A stretch of DNA of 64,000 bases from an uncultured Pseudomonadota bacterium (GCA_964651435.1 CAZYVU010000010.1:11392-75391); one strand, 5' to 3'; shown: positions 231-23,771, counted from the first letter of the stretch. Numbers and translations are program-made. The notes: generated by a model not told the origin, from the sequence alone.

Positions 231-412
231 CCGGGGTCACATCTTCAATTGTCAATTTTCGGCTACCTGTATTATCCTGGAAGCGAGAAGAGCCCAGGAT
301 GGTCTGGGTTTTGAGTTTCGGGTTCTGGGTTCTGGGTTTTTGGGTTCTCAGTTTTGGGGTAACACAAGCCGGAACGGGACATGGGAGATGGAATGCCGGA
401 AATGGGAAGCGG
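231..412. repeat. Composite intergenic repeat, copy L1: 25-nt core (reverse form CCGGGGTCACATCTTCAATTGTCAA) plus a ~150-nt tail with GGGTTYT-type and GGGARAT-type heptamer runs
   Basis: Read directly: 231-257 = CCGGGGTCACATCTTCAATTGTCAATT. The following ~150 nt aligns by eye with 1489-1633 (shared GGCTRCCTGYATTATCC..GCGAGAAGAGCCCAGGATG..TCTGGGTTTTGAGTTT..CCGGAACGGGA). It fills the gap downstream of the GT2 stop at 439. Confidence 0.9.
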
Positions 413-438: not shown

Positions 439-1449
439 TCACGTGGCCTTGAACAGAAGGTCTACAATGGAGCTGTAGACGCCCTTTGAATATCGTTGGT
501 AGTGGCCTGTGCTCAACTCCCTTGCGATGGGCACCACCCTTCGGAACAGGCTTCCCGGCAAATGGCCGCGCACCCGAAGGTGGCTGAGCTTGCTATCGAT
601 TTTCGATAGGGCATCGGGGGCTGCCGGCCGGGCCGAGGCTTCCGCTACGCGACGGCGAAGCATCATGAATTGTTCAAACTGCCGATCGTAGGCCGAAGGG
701 GGGGCTTGCAGCGCCCCTCTTACCTTTCCCCAAAAGGTGAGCCTTCTGCCCCCGGCCTGATTGGCGGCGTGCTGGCGATACTTTGCCAAAGGCCTTTCAA
801 CCATGCCTACCCTGCCGAAAACCGCGATGACCAGACCGATCCAGTGGTCGTGCATCCACTCTGCCGGGATGGGAAGGAGCACCTCTCTGAACCGGGCCCG
901 GAAGGCCATTGTCATGCCTGTTGCCACGTTGTGGCGCAGGAGAACCTCCAGGGCATGGCCCTCCCGGACAAGCTTTCTGCTGCCGACGGGAAAGAATGTG
1001 GTGCTCTTGTCCCAGAGCAGGAGACCCATGGGCTCAAGCCCTTCACGGACCAGCTCCGCATCGGAAAACAGCGCATCGAGGTCCGGGTGCTCCAGGAAGG
1101 CCGCCGACAGCGCCGCAATCTTTTCCGGGTGCCACACGTCATCCTGGTCGCAGAGAGCGATAACGTCGCCGCTGCAGAGGCCTATTGCTTTCTCGAAGTT
1201 CTTCGTCGAGCCCAACCGGACATCGTTCACGGAGATGGACACCGGGAAACCTGCTTCCGCCGCGAAGTCCCTGCAAATCTTCAGGGTACGGTCCGTCGAG
1301 CAGTCATCGGAGATGACGACCTCGTCAGGCAGCCTGGTCTGAGCCGCAATGCTCTGAAGTTGTTCGGCGAGATAGAGCTCACCATTGTACGTACATAGAG
1401 CCACCGATATTCCCGTCCCCGGGCCCGTCCCCGGCGTCCCCGGGGTCAC
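439..1449 (-). CDS. Family 2 (GT-A fold) glycosyltransferase
   Basis: ISVALCTYNGELYLAEQLQSI, ISDDCSTD and CDQDDVW motifs are typical of GT2 enzymes. The ORF track gives 439..1500, but that start is the TTG of the repeat core. The GTG at 1449 (also repeat-derived) is my preferred start; the start is uncertain and the stop is firm. Confidence 0.8.
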   Translation of the reverse strand: MTPGTPGTGPGTGISVALCTYNGELYLAEQLQSIAAQTRLPDEVVISDDCSTDRTLKICRDFAAEAGFPVSISVNDVRLGSTKNFEKAIGLCSGDVIALCDQDDVWHPEKIAALSAAFLEHPDLDALFSDAELVREGLEPMGLLLWDKSTTFFPVGSRKLVREGHALEVLLRHNVATGMTMAFRARFREVLLPIPAEWMHDHWIGLVIAVFGRVGMVERPLAKYRQHAANQAGGRRLTFWGKVRGALQAPPSAYDRQFEQFMMLRRRVAEASARPAAPDALSKIDSKLSHLRVRGHLPGSLFRRVVPIARELSTGHYQRYSKGVYSSIVDLLFKAT

Positions 1450-1633
1450 ATTCCTGTCCCTGTCCCCGTAAGGGGGCCCGAATGGGGGTTCAATTGTCAA
1501 TTTTGGCTGCCTGCATTATCCCGGAGGCGAGAAGAGCCCAGGATGTTCTGGGTTTTGAGTTTTGGGTTTTGGGTTCTCGGTTTTAGGTTAACAGAAACCG
1601 GAACGGGAAATGGGAAATGGGAAATGGGAGAGG
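1439..1633. repeat. Composite intergenic repeat, copy L2 (core split by a 36-bp insertion, plus heptamer tail)
   Basis: The core halves CCGGGGTCACAT (1439-1451) and TTCAATTGTCAATTTT (1489-1504) are separated by TCCTGTCCCTGTCCCCGTAAGGGGGCCCGAATGGGGG. The tail 1505-1633 is similar to L1 and ends in GGGAAATGGGAAATGGGAAATGGGAGAGG, 3 nt before the fcl stop. Confidence 0.9.
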
Positions 1634-1636
1634 CCG

Positions 1637-2947
1637 TTACTGCACGGCCTTCACATACCACTCATAGGCCTTGCCGATGCCGCGGCCAAGCTCTACCTTG
1701 TGGTGCCAGCCGAGGCCGTGAAGGCGGGACACATCCATGAGCTTTCTCGGGGTGCCGTCGGGCTTCGATACGTCGAAGGCAATGGCGCCCTTGAAGCCGA
1801 CCACTTGGGCGACCATGAGCGCAAGGTCCCGAATGGTCAAGTCTTTTCCCATCCCGATATTGATCTGCGAAATACCGTTTTCGTAGAGGTCCGGCGCGTT
1901 TATGCGCTCCGCGATGTAGTATATGGCATCGGCCACGTCATCGACGTAGAGGAACTCCCGAAGGGGGCTCCCCGTGCCCCAGACGGTGACGGTGACCGAA
2001 GAGGGGTCCGAAGGGCCCGATGGATGGGCGGCAATCGGTGACCCGGCATTGGTCGAGGGCGCGGCGGCGTTCGGTGACCCGGCGGCTCCTGCAAGGCCCG
2101 TTGTCGCCCCGAGGCCGGTGGCGGGCCGCGAAGGGTCCGTCCCCTGAGTACTAATATTGACAATTGAAGATGTGACCCCGGCAGGGTCCGTGCCCTGAAT
2201 GCCGAAGGCGCCCAGGACGGCCAGAACGTCCGCCTCGGGCGACTGGCGGGAAATCACAATCTCCCTCCCCCCGGACCGGAGCCGGCCATTGCCGTATCTG
2301 AGAAAGTCGGCTCTGATGGCATCCCATTCTCCCTCGGCAAGAAGGCGGGCAAGGTGAAACTTGCGGATCAGCGCCGGCAGGACGTGAGACGTCTCCAGAT
2401 TGTAATTGTCGTTAGGGCCATAGAGGTTCGTGGGCATGACAGAAATGAAGTTGTCCCTGTATTGGCGGTAGTAGCTTTCGCACAGCTTGATGCCTGCTAT
2501 CTTCGCGATGGCATAGGGCTCGTTCGTGTATTCAAGGTAGCCGGAGAGCAGGCACTCTTCCCGCAACGGCTGGGGTGCGAGCTTCGGGTAGATGCAGGAG
2601 CTGCCGAGGAAGATGAGCTTCTTCACGCCGTGCTGGTGGGCCGCCTCGATGAGGTTGGCCTCGATCATGAGGTTCTGGTAAATGAATTCGGCCCGATAGG
2701 TGTTGTTGGCCATGATGCCGCCCACGCGGGCTGCGGCGATGATAACGTATTCCGGTCGCACCTCGGCGAAGAAGCGTTCCGTAGCGTCCTGGCGGATCAG
2801 ATCGAGCTCGTCCAACTCTCGCGTAACGATATTCTTGTGGCCTTCCGCAGCAAACTTGCGCAGGATCGCCGATCCCACCATTCCGGCATGGCCGGCTATG
2901 TATATCTTTGCATCCTTGTTGATTCCGTGTTGGTCTGCTTGCGACAT
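1637..2947 (-). CDS. fcl: GDP-L-fucose synthase (GDP-4-keto-6-deoxymannose 3,5-epimerase/4-reductase) carrying a ~65-codon in-frame insert
   Basis: N-terminal Rossmann [14 protein letters not shown], then [47 protein letters not shown] and [18 protein letters not shown] all match the Fcl/WcaG family as I remember it. The length is 436 aa. Confidence 0.9.
2147..2182. repeat. Core repeat copy inside fcl, bracketed by 15-nt direct repeats
   Basis: 2157-2181 = TTGACAATTGAAGATGTGACCCCGG. Flanks are AGGGTCCGTCCCCTG (2132-2146) and AGGGTCCGTGCCCTG (2183-2197), 51 nt apart. Confidence 0.9.
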
Positions 2948-4637: not shown

Positions 4638-5555
4638 TTATGGTGCGTCAGGCCTTGCCAATCCCGAATATTGACAATTGAAGATGTGACCCCGAGGAAG
4701 GCGGAGGAAGGCGGAGAGGGCATCGCGCCAGGGCCGCATGGTGATGCCAAGCTCGCGGGCAAGCTTCGCCTTCGACATGTAGGAGTTCCTCGGTCGCGTT
4801 GCCTTCGTCGGATACTCCTCGGTGGATATGGGGACAATGCGCACGTCCCTCGTCACGAGGCCCCTTTCCCGGGCCAGGCGGTAGATTTCGGCGGCAAATG
4901 CGTGCCAGTTGGTTCTGCCCTCGTTCGTCACGTGATAGGTGCCGAAGCTGCTCGCATCGGCCTCGATGATCTGGGCGATTGTCCGGGCAAGGTCCACGGC
5001 GTAGGTGGGGCTTCCCCACTGATCGCAAACCACCCGCACCTCGTCTCTCTCGTTGAAGAGCCTGAGCATGGTGACGACAAAGTTGCCTCCGTACCTGCCG
5101 TAGAGCCAGGCGGTACGCAGAATAAAATGCCTGTCCCACGTAGCCTCCACGTATTGCTCGCCCAGGGCCTTGCTTTCACCGTATACGCAGAGAGGGTGAA
5201 GGGGGTCGGTCTCGCAGAGCTCTGCCCTATCGTCGCCGCCGCCTCCGAAGACGTAATCCGTGGAAATGTGGATCAGCCGCGCCCCCATATGGCGGGCAAT
5301 CTCGGCTACATTCCTGGCCCCGTCCGCGTTCAGCTCAAAGGCTCGGCCCCGTTCATCTTCCGCCCGGTCCACCGCCGTATAGGCGGCACAGTTGACGATC
5401 CATGAGAGCGGCTTGTGGCGGGCGAATTGCTCGAGGATCGCTTTATCTGCGATATCCACCTCGGCATCCGTGGCGGCGAAGGCCAAGCCGCGCTCCTTGA
5501 GGCACTCCTCCACCTCTCGGCCGAGCATGCCTTTATTTCCGATGAGCCAGATCAT
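4638..5555 (-). CDS. rmlD: dTDP-4-dehydrorhamnose reductase with a repeat-encoded C-terminal tail
   Basis: MIWLIGNKGMLGREV, NCAAYTAVDRAEDE, HISTDYVFGG, VYGESKALGE and RTAWLYG are the RmlD pattern. The last ~20 codons ([20 protein letters not shown]) are a translation of the repeat core at 4671-4694. Confidence 0.88.
   Translation of the reverse strand: MIWLIGNKGMLGREVEECLKERGLAFAATDAEVDIADKAILEQFARHKPLSWIVNCAAYTAVDRAEDERGRAFELNADGARNVAEIARHMGARLIHISTDYVFGGGGDDRAELCETDPLHPLCVYGESKALGEQYVEATWDRHFILRTAWLYGRYGGNFVVTMLRLFNERDEVRVVCDQWGSPTYAVDLARTIAQIIEADASSFGTYHVTNEGRTNWHAFAAEIYRLARERGLVTRDVRIVPISTEEYPTKATRPRNSYMSKAKLARELGITMRPWRDALSAFLRLPRGHIFNCQYSGLARPDAP
4655..4694. repeat. Core repeat copy with an upstream inverted-repeat arm (TTGCCAAT-N7-ATTGACAA)
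   Basis: 4671-4694 = TTGACAATTGAAGATGTGACCCCG. 4655-4662 TTGCCAAT is an imperfect complement of 4670-4677 ATTGACAA. Confidence 0.9.
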
Positions 5556-5785: not shown

Positions 5786-5864
5786 TTGACAATTGAAGAT
5801 GTGACCCCGGAGAGAGGCAGGCCTTGTCAATCCGTAATATTGACAATTGAAGATGTGACCCCGG
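5786..5864. repeat. Two tandem core repeat copies (5786-5810 and 5840-5864), the second with the hairpin arm TTGTCAAT (5824-5831)
   Basis: Both copies read TTGACAATTGAAGATGTGACCCCGG exactly. The second ends flush against the GT4 stop codon (TTA on plus, 5865-5867). Confidence 0.95.
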
Positions 5865-7082
5865 TTAGGCCCCGGAGAGGACGCTGTCGAAGACGGCCGC
5901 CAGTTTGCCCGTCAGGCCTTCGCTCGAATATTGGCGGTCGATGGCATCATAGTCGGGCTGAAAGAAGTCGTACCGGCCCTTTTGCGCGATGATCTTCCTG
6001 AGCACGGCAGCTATCTCCTCCACCCGGTAGGGGTTGACGCATATCCCTGTCCGCGTCTCGCCGATGAACCGCTCCGCCTCGCTTCCTGCCGTGAGGGCCA
6101 GTATGGGTTTCCGTGCGCCGAAGTACTCATAGAGTTTCCCGGGCGCCGCGCTGGCTATCCCCTCCCCCGCAAAGAGGAGCAGAACATCGGCCGATACCTG
6201 GTATGTCAGGGCCTCCTCCCTCGGGACAGGGCCGTCACACCGAACCAGGTCGCGGTAGCGATCCGAGCCGAAGAGGGCCTTCTCCTCCTCCGTAAAGTCG
6301 CCCACCATCTGGATCGCCAGCCGGGCCTGCTCGTCCTTCTGCAGGCTTGCCGCGGCCTTGAGCAGAGGCTCGATGGTGGCCACGGCCCGGCTCTTGTACA
6401 GCCTGCCCGTAAATACGATGTTCATCTTCCCTCCCAGGTCCCGGGGCTTGATATGCTCATAGTCGGACCGGTCGAAGCCGTTGGTGATGGTCACGGCGTT
6501 ACAGCCCGGCCTTTGGAGGCAGAAGTAGTTCGTGATGGGATCGGACACGGCCGTAACAGCGGCGGCACGATTCACAACCTCGCTCTCGACACGAAGGTAC
6601 TTTTTCGATACAAGCGGCGGTTGGCTCTTCACCGGCTCAAAGGCAAGGCCGTCCCGGAAATCGGCAACGAGAGGAATAGAGTGTCTTCCGGCAACTTCAA
6701 GCCCTATGGCAAGGTTGTCGACGATGGGGTAAGTGGCGAAAATGAGCTGTACGTCGGCGGCCTTCAGGAGGCCCGAGAGTCCGTCGAGAACGGCCCTCTG
6801 CCAAAGACGCCGCCAGCCGGGCCACATGCCCGCCCGCCATGCAACTGCCCTGACGCCCTGCCAAAAGAGGCTCTTCGCATCCTTCGATCCCTCCATGGCA
6901 TCCATGGGGTCGGCGAAACGGAGGATGTCTTTCTCCCCCGGAGCCGTCAGGCCCACGTCGACGGTGGCCACGATGGCGCGATAGCCATAGCGCGGCAGAT
7001 AGGCGGCAAACTTCACGGGCCGGTGCACGCCGCCGTTGTTCATTGGCGCGTAGTAGTAGGCGATGAACAGGACGTTACGCAT
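5865..7082 (-). CDS. GT-B fold glycosyltransferase (GT4-like)
   Basis: The N-terminus MRNVLFIAYYYAPMNNGGVHRP is typical of GT4 N-domains. The C-domain shows NIVFTGRL..ADVLLLFAGEG..PGKLYEYFGARKPILAL (an E-x7-E-like region). ATG start, 3 nt from the next gene. Confidence 0.8.
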   Translation of the reverse strand: MRNVLFIAYYYAPMNNGGVHRPVKFAAYLPRYGYRAIVATVDVGLTAPGEKDILRFADPMDAMEGSKDAKSLFWQGVRAVAWRAGMWPGWRRLWQRAVLDGLSGLLKAADVQLIFATYPIVDNLAIGLEVAGRHSIPLVADFRDGLAFEPVKSQPPLVSKKYLRVESEVVNRAAAVTAVSDPITNYFCLQRPGCNAVTITNGFDRSDYEHIKPRDLGGKMNIVFTGRLYKSRAVATIEPLLKAAASLQKDEQARLAIQMVGDFTEEEKALFGSDRYRDLVRCDGPVPREEALTYQVSADVLLLFAGEGIASAAPGKLYEYFGARKPILALTAGSEAERFIGETRTGICVNPYRVEEIAAVLRKIIAQKGRYDFFQPDYDAIDRQYSSEGLTGKLAAVFDSVLSGA

Positions 7083-11761: not shown

Positions 11762-11784
11762 GGGGTCACATCTTCAATTGTCAA
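11761..11784. repeat. Core repeat copy (reverse form) between the SBP and permease genes
   Basis: 11761-11784 = CGGGGTCACATCTTCAATTGTCAA. The extended match CAGTATCCARGACAACAAATTGACAATTGAAG is shared with 5768-5797 (reverse complement). Confidence 0.95.
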
Positions 11785-11886
11785 TTTGTTGTCCTGGATA
11801 CTGGGGGCTGGTGATTGGGTTTGTCTGGTTTGTCTCGTTGTGAACAAAATAAACCTAACAAACCATATAGACCATATAAACCGCCT

Positions 11887-12885
11887 CTATTTCGCAGTTC
11901 GGCGCTCCCGTTCGCGAAGGGCCTTGGCCTCGGCAAGCAGGGAGGCGTCCCACTTGATGGCGGGGATACGGTCGATCTTCTTCTCGGCGTGGAGGAACCT
12001 TGCCGCCTCCTGCACGTCCTTTACAATCCCTTCATCAAGGTCCAGAGAGAAGTCGATGCGCTTAAACACCCGCTCGAAGACCTCGGGGGACACGTTGTAG
12101 CCTTTCTGATTTGCGGCCTGCGCCGCCACCTTGGCCGCCCTTTTCGGGTCGGTCCGGATGAAATCGGCCTTATCGAGGTGGGCGGCCAGAAACCGCACGA
12201 TCTCCGCCCGGTTCGTACGAACAAAGTCCGCTGTTGTGTGGAGGAGGACGGGAACACGCGAAACGTCGCCGTATGTCCGGAGCACCCGGCCCGACCCTTG
12301 AGCCTCCGCGATGGCGCAGGTCGGCTCCCATGCCGTGAAGGCCTCGATGGAGCCGCCTTTGAGCGCCGCACCCATGTCCTCGATCTTCAGGTTCACCCAC
12401 CGAAAGTCGTCCCAGGAGAGGCCTTTTGTCCTCTCGAAATACTTCCTCAGCACCTGTTCGGCCCCGGTGCCGAGACGCGTCGCCACCGTCTTGCCCTTGA
12501 GGTCGCTCCACGAGCCGTATTTCGAGTTGGCCCTCACCACCGTGGCGTATCGGTCGCCCCGCTGAACGACGCCGACGATGACGGCCCGGTCGCCGAGGGC
12601 ATTGAAGAGTTCTACGCTCTTGCTGTCGCTTCCACAGTTGATCTTGCAGCGCCCGGCAATGAGGGCCTGGTTGCCCTCCGTACCGGAACTGAAGAGGAGG
12701 TGCTCCACCGCCAGCCCGTAGCGTTTCCAAAGCTCAGGCTGCCCCTGGAGCAGAAACTCCTCCGGATAATACTGCCCTGCGTAGCAGAAGGGGCTGCTCT
12801 TCTGGGCCCAAGCCGTCGTGCCATGCCCTGCCAGGAGAAGTGCAAAAATGACGATACCAATGGATAAAGCGGTTCCTGTCTTCAT
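11887..12885 (-). CDS. ABC transporter periplasmic substrate-binding protein (NMT1/THI5-like, NitT/TauT type)
   Basis: Signal peptide MKTGTALSIGIVIFALLLAGHGTTAWA. The size, alternating pattern and gene context with two permeases and an ATPase fit this family. Confidence 0.8.
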   Translation of the reverse strand: MKTGTALSIGIVIFALLLAGHGTTAWAQKSSPFCYAGQYYPEEFLLQGQPELWKRYGLAVEHLLFSSGTEGNQALIAGRCKINCGSDSKSVELFNALGDRAVIVGVVQRGDRYATVVRANSKYGSWSDLKGKTVATRLGTGAEQVLRKYFERTKGLSWDDFRWVNLKIEDMGAALKGGSIEAFTAWEPTCAIAEAQGSGRVLRTYGDVSRVPVLLHTTADFVRTNRAEIVRFLAAHLDKADFIRTDPKRAAKVAAQAANQKGYNVSPEVFERVFKRIDFSLDLDEGIVKDVQEAARFLHAEKKIDRIPAIKWDASLLAEAKALRERERRTAK

Positions 12886-23746: not shown

Positions 23747-23771
23747 TTGACAATTGAAGATGTGACCCCGG
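23747..23771. repeat. Core repeat copy flush against the stop codon of the Moco subunit gene
   Basis: 23747-23771 = TTGACAATTGAAGATGTGACCCCGG, followed immediately by TTA (the stop of the minus-strand gene). Confidence 0.95.

Follow-up and report, generated by a model that had tools for sequence, protein, structure and literature searches.

How a sequence that looks like mobile DNA came to lie in frame inside an enzyme-coding gene, and whether that gene can still make a working enzyme, are the questions raised by fcl, a gene for a GDP-L-fucose synthase in a 64,000-nt stretch of DNA from an uncultured Pseudomonadota bacterium (GCA_964651435.1 CAZYVU010000010.1:11392-75391). The whole of this stretch is hereafter called the window, and positions are counted from its first nucleotide. 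The insertion in fcl is real and appears to be tolerated. The explanation that we regard as probable is that fcl carries a solo, truncated terminal inverted repeat (TIR) of a transposable element of the TIRtron type, lodged in a disordered 60-codon expansion of a linker; this TIR would be read through during translation, would leave the enzyme core untouched, and would be a tolerated passenger that arose in at least two steps.

The gene fcl (1637..2947, minus strand; fcl/GMER type) is an open reading frame (ORF) for 436 amino acids that remains open through the insert. Its product matched the Pfam family Epimerase (1e-60), and its best NCBIfam match was the GDP-L-fucose synthase equivalog NF047922 (459.8 bits; curated cutoff 500), the match being split in two by a loop of 117 residues. 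Escherichia coli GMER (1BWS) also aligned in two blocks with 117 residues between them (5e-112). In this alignment, residues S116, C118, Y145, K149 and H188 correspond to S107, C109, Y136, K140 and H179 of the E. coli enzyme, and they were invariant across 41 homologs. The Ser-Tyr-Lys triad, the Cys/His epimerisation pair and the N-terminal GxxGxxG motif (as GHAGMVGS) are all present. An AlphaFold2 (AF2) model of the protein (predicted template-modelling score, pTM, 0.81) showed the extended short-chain dehydrogenase/reductase fold and matched 1E6U/1BWS and 7ANH in Foldseek, where the top matches were GMER-type reductases with target-normalised TM-scores of 0.86-0.89. Since GDP-heptose reductases were also among the best structural matches, the sugar specificity of the product is not proven. 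The same protein (P0001) is encoded in four other assemblies (ENA ERZ28616201 and ERZ15185456; Logan SRR8925765 and SRR19543045), the contigs of which were 99.8-99.9% identical to the window. Among the five assemblies fcl shows two synonymous single-nucleotide differences and no non-synonymous one, the DNA being otherwise identical. Because the identical gene was assembled in four other metagenomes, the insert is not an assembly artefact. What had looked like a structural polymorphism between the window (1210-1435) and locus L001 was merely a scaffold gap of Ns.

The closest ortholog, P0002 (382 aa, 74% identical over aligned columns, encoded at the syntenic locus L005), has the ancestral sub-domain (…DVLALLANFGIH…) in common with the window protein and lacks the insert. 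It reads FGIHSPTPDPRKVTVSLWGTG / SPTPDPRK-VTVSLWGTG where the window protein has exactly 65 residues, located between the two blocks that the original prediction had named as close together in Fcl sequences. Read in codons, the junction is GAC CCC CGA AAG GTC ACC in L005, where it occurs once, while the window has GAC CCT GCC GGG GTC AC(A) and, 180 nt away, GAC CCC TCT TCG GTC AC(C). Since L005 holds one junction copy and the window two, 180 nt apart, the extra DNA is best described as 60 codons: a lineage-specific in-frame insert of 180 nt (2006..2185, minus strand; residues 255-314), as judged from the ortholog comparison and the junction repeats. The native junction CGGACCCCTCTTCGGTCAC (1992..2010, minus strand) is 74% identical to CGGACCCTGCCGGGGTCAC at 2172-2190, exactly 180 nt away, the two 19-nt copies differing at five positions. 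The placement of the insert can slide inside this imperfect junction repeat, and the wider span of 65 codons occupies 1997-2191. The native fcl site around the insertion reads …CTTCGGTCACCGTC…; its Val-Thr codons, GGTCAC, mimic the outer end of the TIR, and the GGGGTCAC end of the TIR coincides with them in frame. A full-length protein search returned nothing closer to the fcl product than 74% identity, and the particular insert of the window was present in none of the homologs recovered by full-length and loop-centred protein searches. The negatives of the loop-centred search are weak, since it returned C-terminal matches only and missed P0001 itself, of which the query was a substring, as well as P0002. 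When three hypothetical empty-site proteins (two Δ60, one Δ17) were looked up as exact sequences in the databases, none was found.

The TIR within the insert (CCGGGGTCACATCTTCAATTGTCAATATTA on the coding strand; 2152..2181, minus strand; core at 2157-2181) was recognized by an exact 23-mer, and its predicted translation is (A)GVTSSIVNI, in the frame that had been proposed. It is identical over 30 nt to another copy in the window, at 5840, beyond which the two sequences diverge, and for this reason we regard it as a truncated left-end TIRtron unit. The hairpin partner is absent from the fcl copy, and the 36-nt unit there folds at 0 kcal/mol, no better than shuffled sequences. The orientation found in fcl, GGGGTCACATCTTCAATTGTCAAT, is stop-free in all three frames, and its reverse complement has stops in two of the three. 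Given this lack of stops and an insert length divisible by three, translation would read through the TIR.

The TIR is flanked by two direct-repeat copies of 15/16 nt, both encoding QGTDP: an inner one at 2132..2147 (AGGGTCCGTCCCCTG at 2132-2146) and an outer one at 2183..2198 (AGGGTCCGTGCCCTG at 2183-2197), both on the minus strand. The arms are about 93-94% identical and 51 nt apart, and form a 51-nt A-B-A unit. Further along the insert lies a 36-nt tandem duplication (2018..2083, minus strand; 30 nt, 80% identical) that holds the two elements first described as half-cores (TCGGTGACCCGGC, at 2035-2047 and 2071-2083). An 11-nt repeat with copies 120 nt apart also falls within the insert. On re-reading, the coordinates, the 436-aa ORF, the 51-nt separation of the 15-nt repeats and the 36-nt tandem spacing of the original prediction all proved exact. 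Every repeat spacing inside the insert is divisible by three, in keeping with the survival of in-frame outcomes alone. The bracket formed by the 15-nt arms is real and unlikely to be due to chance: 15-mer repeats (≤1 mismatch, within 100 nt) occurred five times in the 64 kb, compared to a mean of 0.4 in shuffled sequences, and two of the five involve the TIR repeat. The proposal that the half-cores are nested or decayed copies of the core was not well supported, their likeness to it being marginal (49-59 of 1000 shuffles scored equally in Smith-Waterman alignments, p≈0.05). The remainder of the insert is GC-rich (75% GC, vs 59% for the fcl gene), and blastn-short searches found no donor for it in the window or in 141 loci. 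Of the extra segment of 180-195 nt, only ~30 nt (2152-2181) can be shown to derive from the repeat.

The identity of the repeat is revealed by its occurrence elsewhere. The 23-nt core TTGACAATTGAAGATGTGACCCC has seven exact copies in the window, compared to 0.00 expected from shuffles. It was also present in 15 stretches of GTDB genomes, these metagenome-assembled genomes (MAGs) being labelled delta-proteobacteria, Syntrophaceae, Thermodesulfobacteriota, WOR-3 and Nitrospirae, and in at least 120 metagenome stretches among the matches listed; the exact copies number at least 135 overall. In 120 unique contexts, conservation was sharply bounded to GGGGTCACATCTTCAATTGTCAAT(T/A), both flanks being unrelated. 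At five independent loci (L007, equivalent to L072 and L107; L019; L080; L109; and L141), a gene of ~312 aa lies between two inverted cores ~1,000 bp apart with their GGGG ends outward, making an element of ~1.02 kb; partial or truncated transposase genes adjoin the cores at several more loci. The encoded proteins matched Pfam Y1_Tnp at 40-53 bits (cutoff 23), and their best NCBIfam match was the REP-associated tyrosine transposase (REP_Tyr_transpos) at 64-77 bits, below the cutoff of 80. They have a C-terminal Bac_DnaA_C-like helix-turn-helix (HTH), and a HUH motif (NHYHL) and a YIHxNP tyrosine motif are visible. These proteins are mutually 55-66% identical, and the TIR is exact. The supposition that the repeat came from a mobile element is thus supported, since Y1 transposase genes lie between inverted copies of this very sequence.

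TIRtrons and their transposases, TIRYTs, have been named before, with a TIR consensus GGGGWSAS and with moderately abundant families of single, dimeric or clustered TIRs (Di Nocera et al. 2013, BMC Genomics 14:522, PMC3733652), and TIRYT proteins have been classed as subclass 2.1 with a DnaA-C-like domain (Quentin et al. 2018, PMC6006769). The start of the core, GGGGTCAC, fits the published consensus. TIRs also occur as back-to-back dimers (L011, L016) and as a tandem pair in the window (5786/5840). The left end of the TIRtron has a subterminal hairpin, TTGTCAAT-N5-6-TTGACA, the arm of which is present in the 4671 and 5840 copies (−5.5 kcal/mol). The 25-nt core by itself is not palindromic and folds at 0 kcal/mol, no better than shuffles, hairpins being found only in dimers or in a left-end unit with the extra arm. 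On these sequence features, the family shows the characters of a TIRtron (a Y1 gene bracketed by the repeat, a beginning that fits GGGGWSAS, and copies that are dispersed), and the repeat is identified as the 23-nt TIR of a ~1.02-kb TIRtron encoding a putative RAYT-like Y1/HUH transposase (TIRYT). A literature search found no paper with the core sequence, and neither this TIR sequence nor an intragenic translated TIR was found in PMC3733652 or PMC6006769.

Several other identities were considered and discarded. A role of the core as a promoter, with TTGACA as a -35 box, was not supported by a sigma-70-type consensus scan, which found no promoter at any core. An integron attC site, a CRISPR and a DNA-uptake sequence were rejected given that there is no inverse core site and no regular array, and given the link to the transposase. 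The copies do not make a miniature inverted-repeat transposable element (MITE), since those in the window are one-ended and the flanking direct repeats in 123 contexts were no longer than controls.

The place of the insertion in the protein is one that varies widely. The segment from RKFH to WGTG had a mode of 11 residues in 113 homologs, with a tail to 87; none is as long as that of the window protein, at 123 residues. In orthologs that possess the ancestral sub-domain, (F/Y)GI is followed by S/T/P-rich linkers of 8 to ~42 residues. In the AF2 model, the sub-domain at 200-252 and the strand at 318-323 were confident, while residues ~253-312 had low per-residue confidence (pLDDT 28-61) and no secondary structure. 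The modelling that had been suggested for the loop thus yields a confident core with an expansion of 60 residues that is predicted to be intrinsically disordered. A loop of comparable length lacking the core, which had been named as evidence for an ancestral loop, is seen in part in P0079, where an independent version reaches 87 aa, and the loop of P0037 is also long; still, no homolog has the insert of the window. Another Fcl homolog, P0225 (229 aa, JGI), has its own, distinct insert (…LESFDKLRTSGVDESAPSLRSGELRRAGRG…) at the corresponding place, following RKFH…IRADF; this insert looks like what another common interspersed repeat, also GC-rich, would encode. The Fcl linker region may be a recurrent landing site.

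The 51-nt footprint had been read as a duplication left by insertion. Transposition of the IS200 type, by Y1 enzymes, makes no target duplication. Moreover, the flanking direct repeats of 123 independent TIR copies, taken as the longest substring shared by left and right flanks, were no longer than those of shuffled pairings. Target-site duplication was therefore rejected as a property of the TIR family, in agreement with IS200-type transposition, and the footprint is not a target-site duplication typical of the family; the 15-nt bracket is therefore a local event. A different pattern did emerge when 93 TIR copies (from L007-L141, L001 and the window) were inspected: tandem duplications of 8-15 nt (≤1 mismatch) abutting, and often including, the GGGG end were found at 11 of them, compared to 6 of 186 controls (Fisher p=0.007). 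In the window this pattern is seen at 4671, 5840 and 1437, and as an A-B-A with a 10-nt arm at 5805-5814/5870-5879. A weak flank bias, GGGnTTT, precedes the GGGG of the TIR. No description of such GGGG-end tandem duplications was found in PMC3733652 or PMC6006769; their enrichment suggests that TIR ends promote local duplication.

From these observations we infer a history of the fcl insert with at least two steps, together with its neutrality, the order of the events and the molecular mechanism. The insertion site is the linker that joins the (F/Y)GI strand to the VxVWGTG strand, the length of which is naturally variable. A first step would have been an older GC-rich Gly/Ala/Pro/Ser expansion, including the 36-nt tandem duplication, the copies of which are now 80% identical. 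A younger event would then have added a 36-nt TIR fragment along with a 15-nt local duplication (93% identical). The fragment may have arrived by strand transfer on single-stranded DNA by the Y1 transposase (TIRYT) or, alternatively, by replication slippage or template switching near the end of a TIR. Selection for a working fcl would keep only in-frame, stop-free outcomes, and the insert would most likely be a tolerated passenger rather than a functional module.

Some points weigh against this history. For about 130 nt of the insert, no donor was found in the window or in the 141 loci. No empty-site allele was found in the databases, and the ortholog from which the pre-insertion state was deduced shares no more than 74% identity. 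The 64-kb window, L001-L004 and the 17 kb of extra flank contain no TIRYT gene, for which reason the activity of a TIRYT in this organism is unproven. The 15-nt bracket is not explained by the presumed transposase, since neither Y1/IS200 transposition nor the TIR family shows target duplications. The NCBIfam score of the Fcl protein is just below the curated cutoff, and it is by inference that we take the insert-bearing gene to be expressed and the insert to be neutral.

An alternative that we consider unlikely, yet the strongest of those weighed, is a capture directed to the site in one step. A TIRYT would cleave at or next to GGGGTCAC and join similar sites; the GGTCAC of fcl would have served as a pseudo-target into which a GGTCAC-bounded unit was pasted, and later duplications at GGTCAC would have generated the so-called half-cores. 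It is consistent with this that CGGACCCnnCnnnGGTCAC copies bound the insert exactly 180 nt apart, that four GGTCAC are present on the coding strand within 200 nt with a new segment after each, that a comparable A-B-A arrangement is seen for the tandem TIRs at 5786/5840, the GGGG of the TIR being part of A, and that GGGG-end duplications are enriched as described above. However, the junction copies differ at 5 of 19 positions while the TIR is 100% intact, and for this reason a single recent event does not fit. Further, the GGTCAC segments measure 98, 36 and 46 nt, which are not all multiples of three, and the extra GGTCAC sites are themselves marginal (p≈0.05). PMC3733652 and PMC6006769 contain no mapped TIRYT cleavage site. 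The related general proposal, that the TIR outer end GGGGTCAC is both the cleavage site and a preferred Y1 target, such that codons mimicking it (GGT-CAC / G-GTC-AC, Val-Thr) capture TIR-bounded DNA and TIR ends seed short local duplications, is speculative, and we doubt that it is correct. If true, it would provide a transposase-driven route to new disordered loops in essential enzymes, and the exact 23-mer shared by MAGs of different phyla would denote an actively spreading element.

The gene might instead be dead or dying, the insertion having inactivated it and the ORF having stayed open because GC-rich DNA rarely has stops. The large size of the insert (60 aa), the abundance at the locus of TIR copies by which neighbouring ORFs are cut short or lengthened, and the sub-cutoff NCBIfam score would all suit this possibility. 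Nevertheless, it is improbable given that all the catalytic and cofactor-binding residues are invariant, the fold predicted outside the loop is confident, the differences among assemblies are two synonymous against zero non-synonymous, and the insertion lies at the most length-tolerant position of the family; in addition, one allele is present in all five assemblies, with no variant allele in the databases.

It is more improbable still that the intragenic TIR is functional, be it as a binding or recombination site for rearranging or regulating the polysaccharide locus (phase variation) or as a disordered segment selected as a linker. All eight TIR copies of the window, a total that includes a split copy at 1437-1503, fall, in both orientations, within the first 24 kb, which hold a polysaccharide and ABC-transporter cluster, with none in 24001-64000, and repetitive extragenic palindromic (REP) arrays lie beside exopolysaccharide (EPS) genes in Thauera (PMC3733652). 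This distribution would favour a role in the cluster, but the arrangement is the same in all five independent assemblies, the cores show no sigma-70-type promoter and no Rfam match, and the fcl copy is truncated and without its hairpin arm. Finally, repeats can mislead assemblers and P0079 and P0037 show that relatives may have long loops, but the possibility that the insert is a chimera or another artefact of assembly, or else an ancestral loop that resembles the repeat by chance, can practically be dismissed, since the identical gene came from four other assemblies of different samples and pipelines, the exact 23-mer occurs at six other sites against an expectation of 0.00, and no homolog recovered has the insert.

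The remaining TIR copies of the window were located by searches with the core; four further copies were present in the adjacent flank, and among the ~150 TIR copies examined the fcl copy alone lies deep in a credible gene. The copy at 233..255 (minus strand) has an inner extension of ~150 nt (257-420), identified also from repeat families. In the split copy (1437..1503, minus strand), ~35 nt (CCCCCATTCGGGCCCCCTTACGGGGACAGGGACAGG) separate TTGACAATTGAA from ATGTGACCCC, with an inner extension at 1501-1640. The two ~150-nt extensions are 79-89% identical and contain short periodic G/T-rich and GGGAAAT-type repeats; an Rfam scan of positions 1-25000 (E≤1) found no match for the core or for these extensions. 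The outer flank of the split copy (1405-1445) carries tandem CCGGGGACG-type repeats. A 353-aa GT2 ORF takes its first ~31 residues (MTIEPPFGPPYGDRDRNVTPGTPGTGPGTG) from the split TIR and its flank, and its Pfam domain begins at residue 32; its annotated N-terminus is probably false.

The copy at 4671..4693 (plus strand), which has the subterminal hairpin, is located in the 3′ end of an rmlD-like ORF (4638..5555, minus strand). This ORF runs through the TIR: of its 305 residues, the last of the RmlD domain is residue 284, and the C-terminal tail is encoded by the TIR and the hairpin arm, which makes this the second case of a TIR being translated, here in another frame. The outer end of this TIR adjoins a tandem duplication of 10 nt (GAGGAAGGCG twice). 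Two tandem copies (5786-5808 and 5840-5862; 5786..5862, plus strand; region 5786-5883), 54 nt apart, directly follow a GT4 gene, the TAA stop of which is provided by the inserted unit. The second unit is bracketed by the 10-nt direct repeat CTCTCCGGGG (5805-5814, 5870-5879), which includes the GGGG of the first TIR. The copy at 11762..11784 (minus strand) ends a segment of ~125 nt (window 11762-11890; L001 1062-1186) lying exactly between genes for an NMT1-type binding protein and an ABC permease; in the syntenic ortholog L005 (1375-1378) these two genes overlap (ATGA). The start codon of the permease gene comes directly after the CCCC end of this TIR. The last copy (23747..23769, plus strand) directly follows a stop codon (TAA-CC-GGGG...). 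Just to the left of the window, L001 12822-16798 contains small toxin-antitoxin-type genes (DUF433/DUF5615, HicA, PIN, AbiEii-like) separated by composite elements, each made of a long perfect low-complexity hairpin, a conserved block of ~60 nt and a TIR, with TGGTATAAT-type -10 boxes downstream.

The insertion in fcl ties a barely studied class of mobile DNA, the TIRtrons and their TIRYTs, to a concrete protein change that can be dated, in which part of the end of a transposon was turned into 17 codons of a metabolic enzyme. It provides an example outside Rickettsia of selfish repeats that lengthen protein loops without killing the protein, and it points to the kind of site at which they persist: a linker whose length already differed tenfold. 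The sharply bounded sequence of 23-25 nt is now defined for TIRYT biochemistry. The locus also carries a warning for annotation, since its TIR copies supply neighbouring genes with stop codons, C-terminal tails and false N-termini.

In-frame repeat insertions as such are already known, from Rickettsia palindromic elements (RPEs) and intragenic REPs (PMC3733652). The description of the case as unusual therefore calls for moderation, given that the linker varies widely in length and that in-frame REP and RPE insertions in enzymes have been documented there. The RPEs (Ogata et al. 2000, as cited in PMC3733652) offer a parallel, being short selfish repeats that lie in frame in enzyme-type ORFs and are translated with the fold undisturbed. 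However, RPEs are palindromic, CGTC-tagged, 100-150 bp long, present in many genes of one genome, and linked to no known transposase, whereas the fcl case is a single non-palindromic fragment of ~30 nt tied to a known transposase family. The GTAG/CGTC REPs found within genes resemble it as transposase-associated repeats in real genes that add 20-80 residues, proposed to lie in flexible linkers or loops (PMC3733652); REP ends also give stop codons to neighbouring ORFs, as the TIRs do for the GT4 and rmlD-like genes. Classical REPs, in contrast, form stem-loops from a palindrome and are tagged by GTAG or CGTC, and the TIR core has neither; since the single core is non-palindromic and folds at 0 kcal/mol, it fails the defining feature of a REP, and an assignment to classical REPs or REPINs was rejected. 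IS200/IS605 elements share with the TIRtron a Y1/HUH transposase, a left-end subterminal hairpin and the lack of a target-site duplication, but they have no terminal inverted repeats, and the TIRtron differs in its longer transposase (~312 aa) with an extra HTH and in having copies that are mostly 25-nt solo units. The closest agreement is with the TIRtrons and TIRYTs already described, in which a RAYT-like Y1/HUH gene with a Bac_DnaA_C-like HTH lies between long inverted repeats starting with GGGGWSAS, and single, paired or clustered TIRs are dispersed; the family present in fcl is set apart by a 23-nt TIR not found in the literature, by the exact conservation of this TIR despite a protein identity of 55-66%, and by its presence in MAGs labelled delta-proteobacteria, WOR-3 and Nitrospirae.

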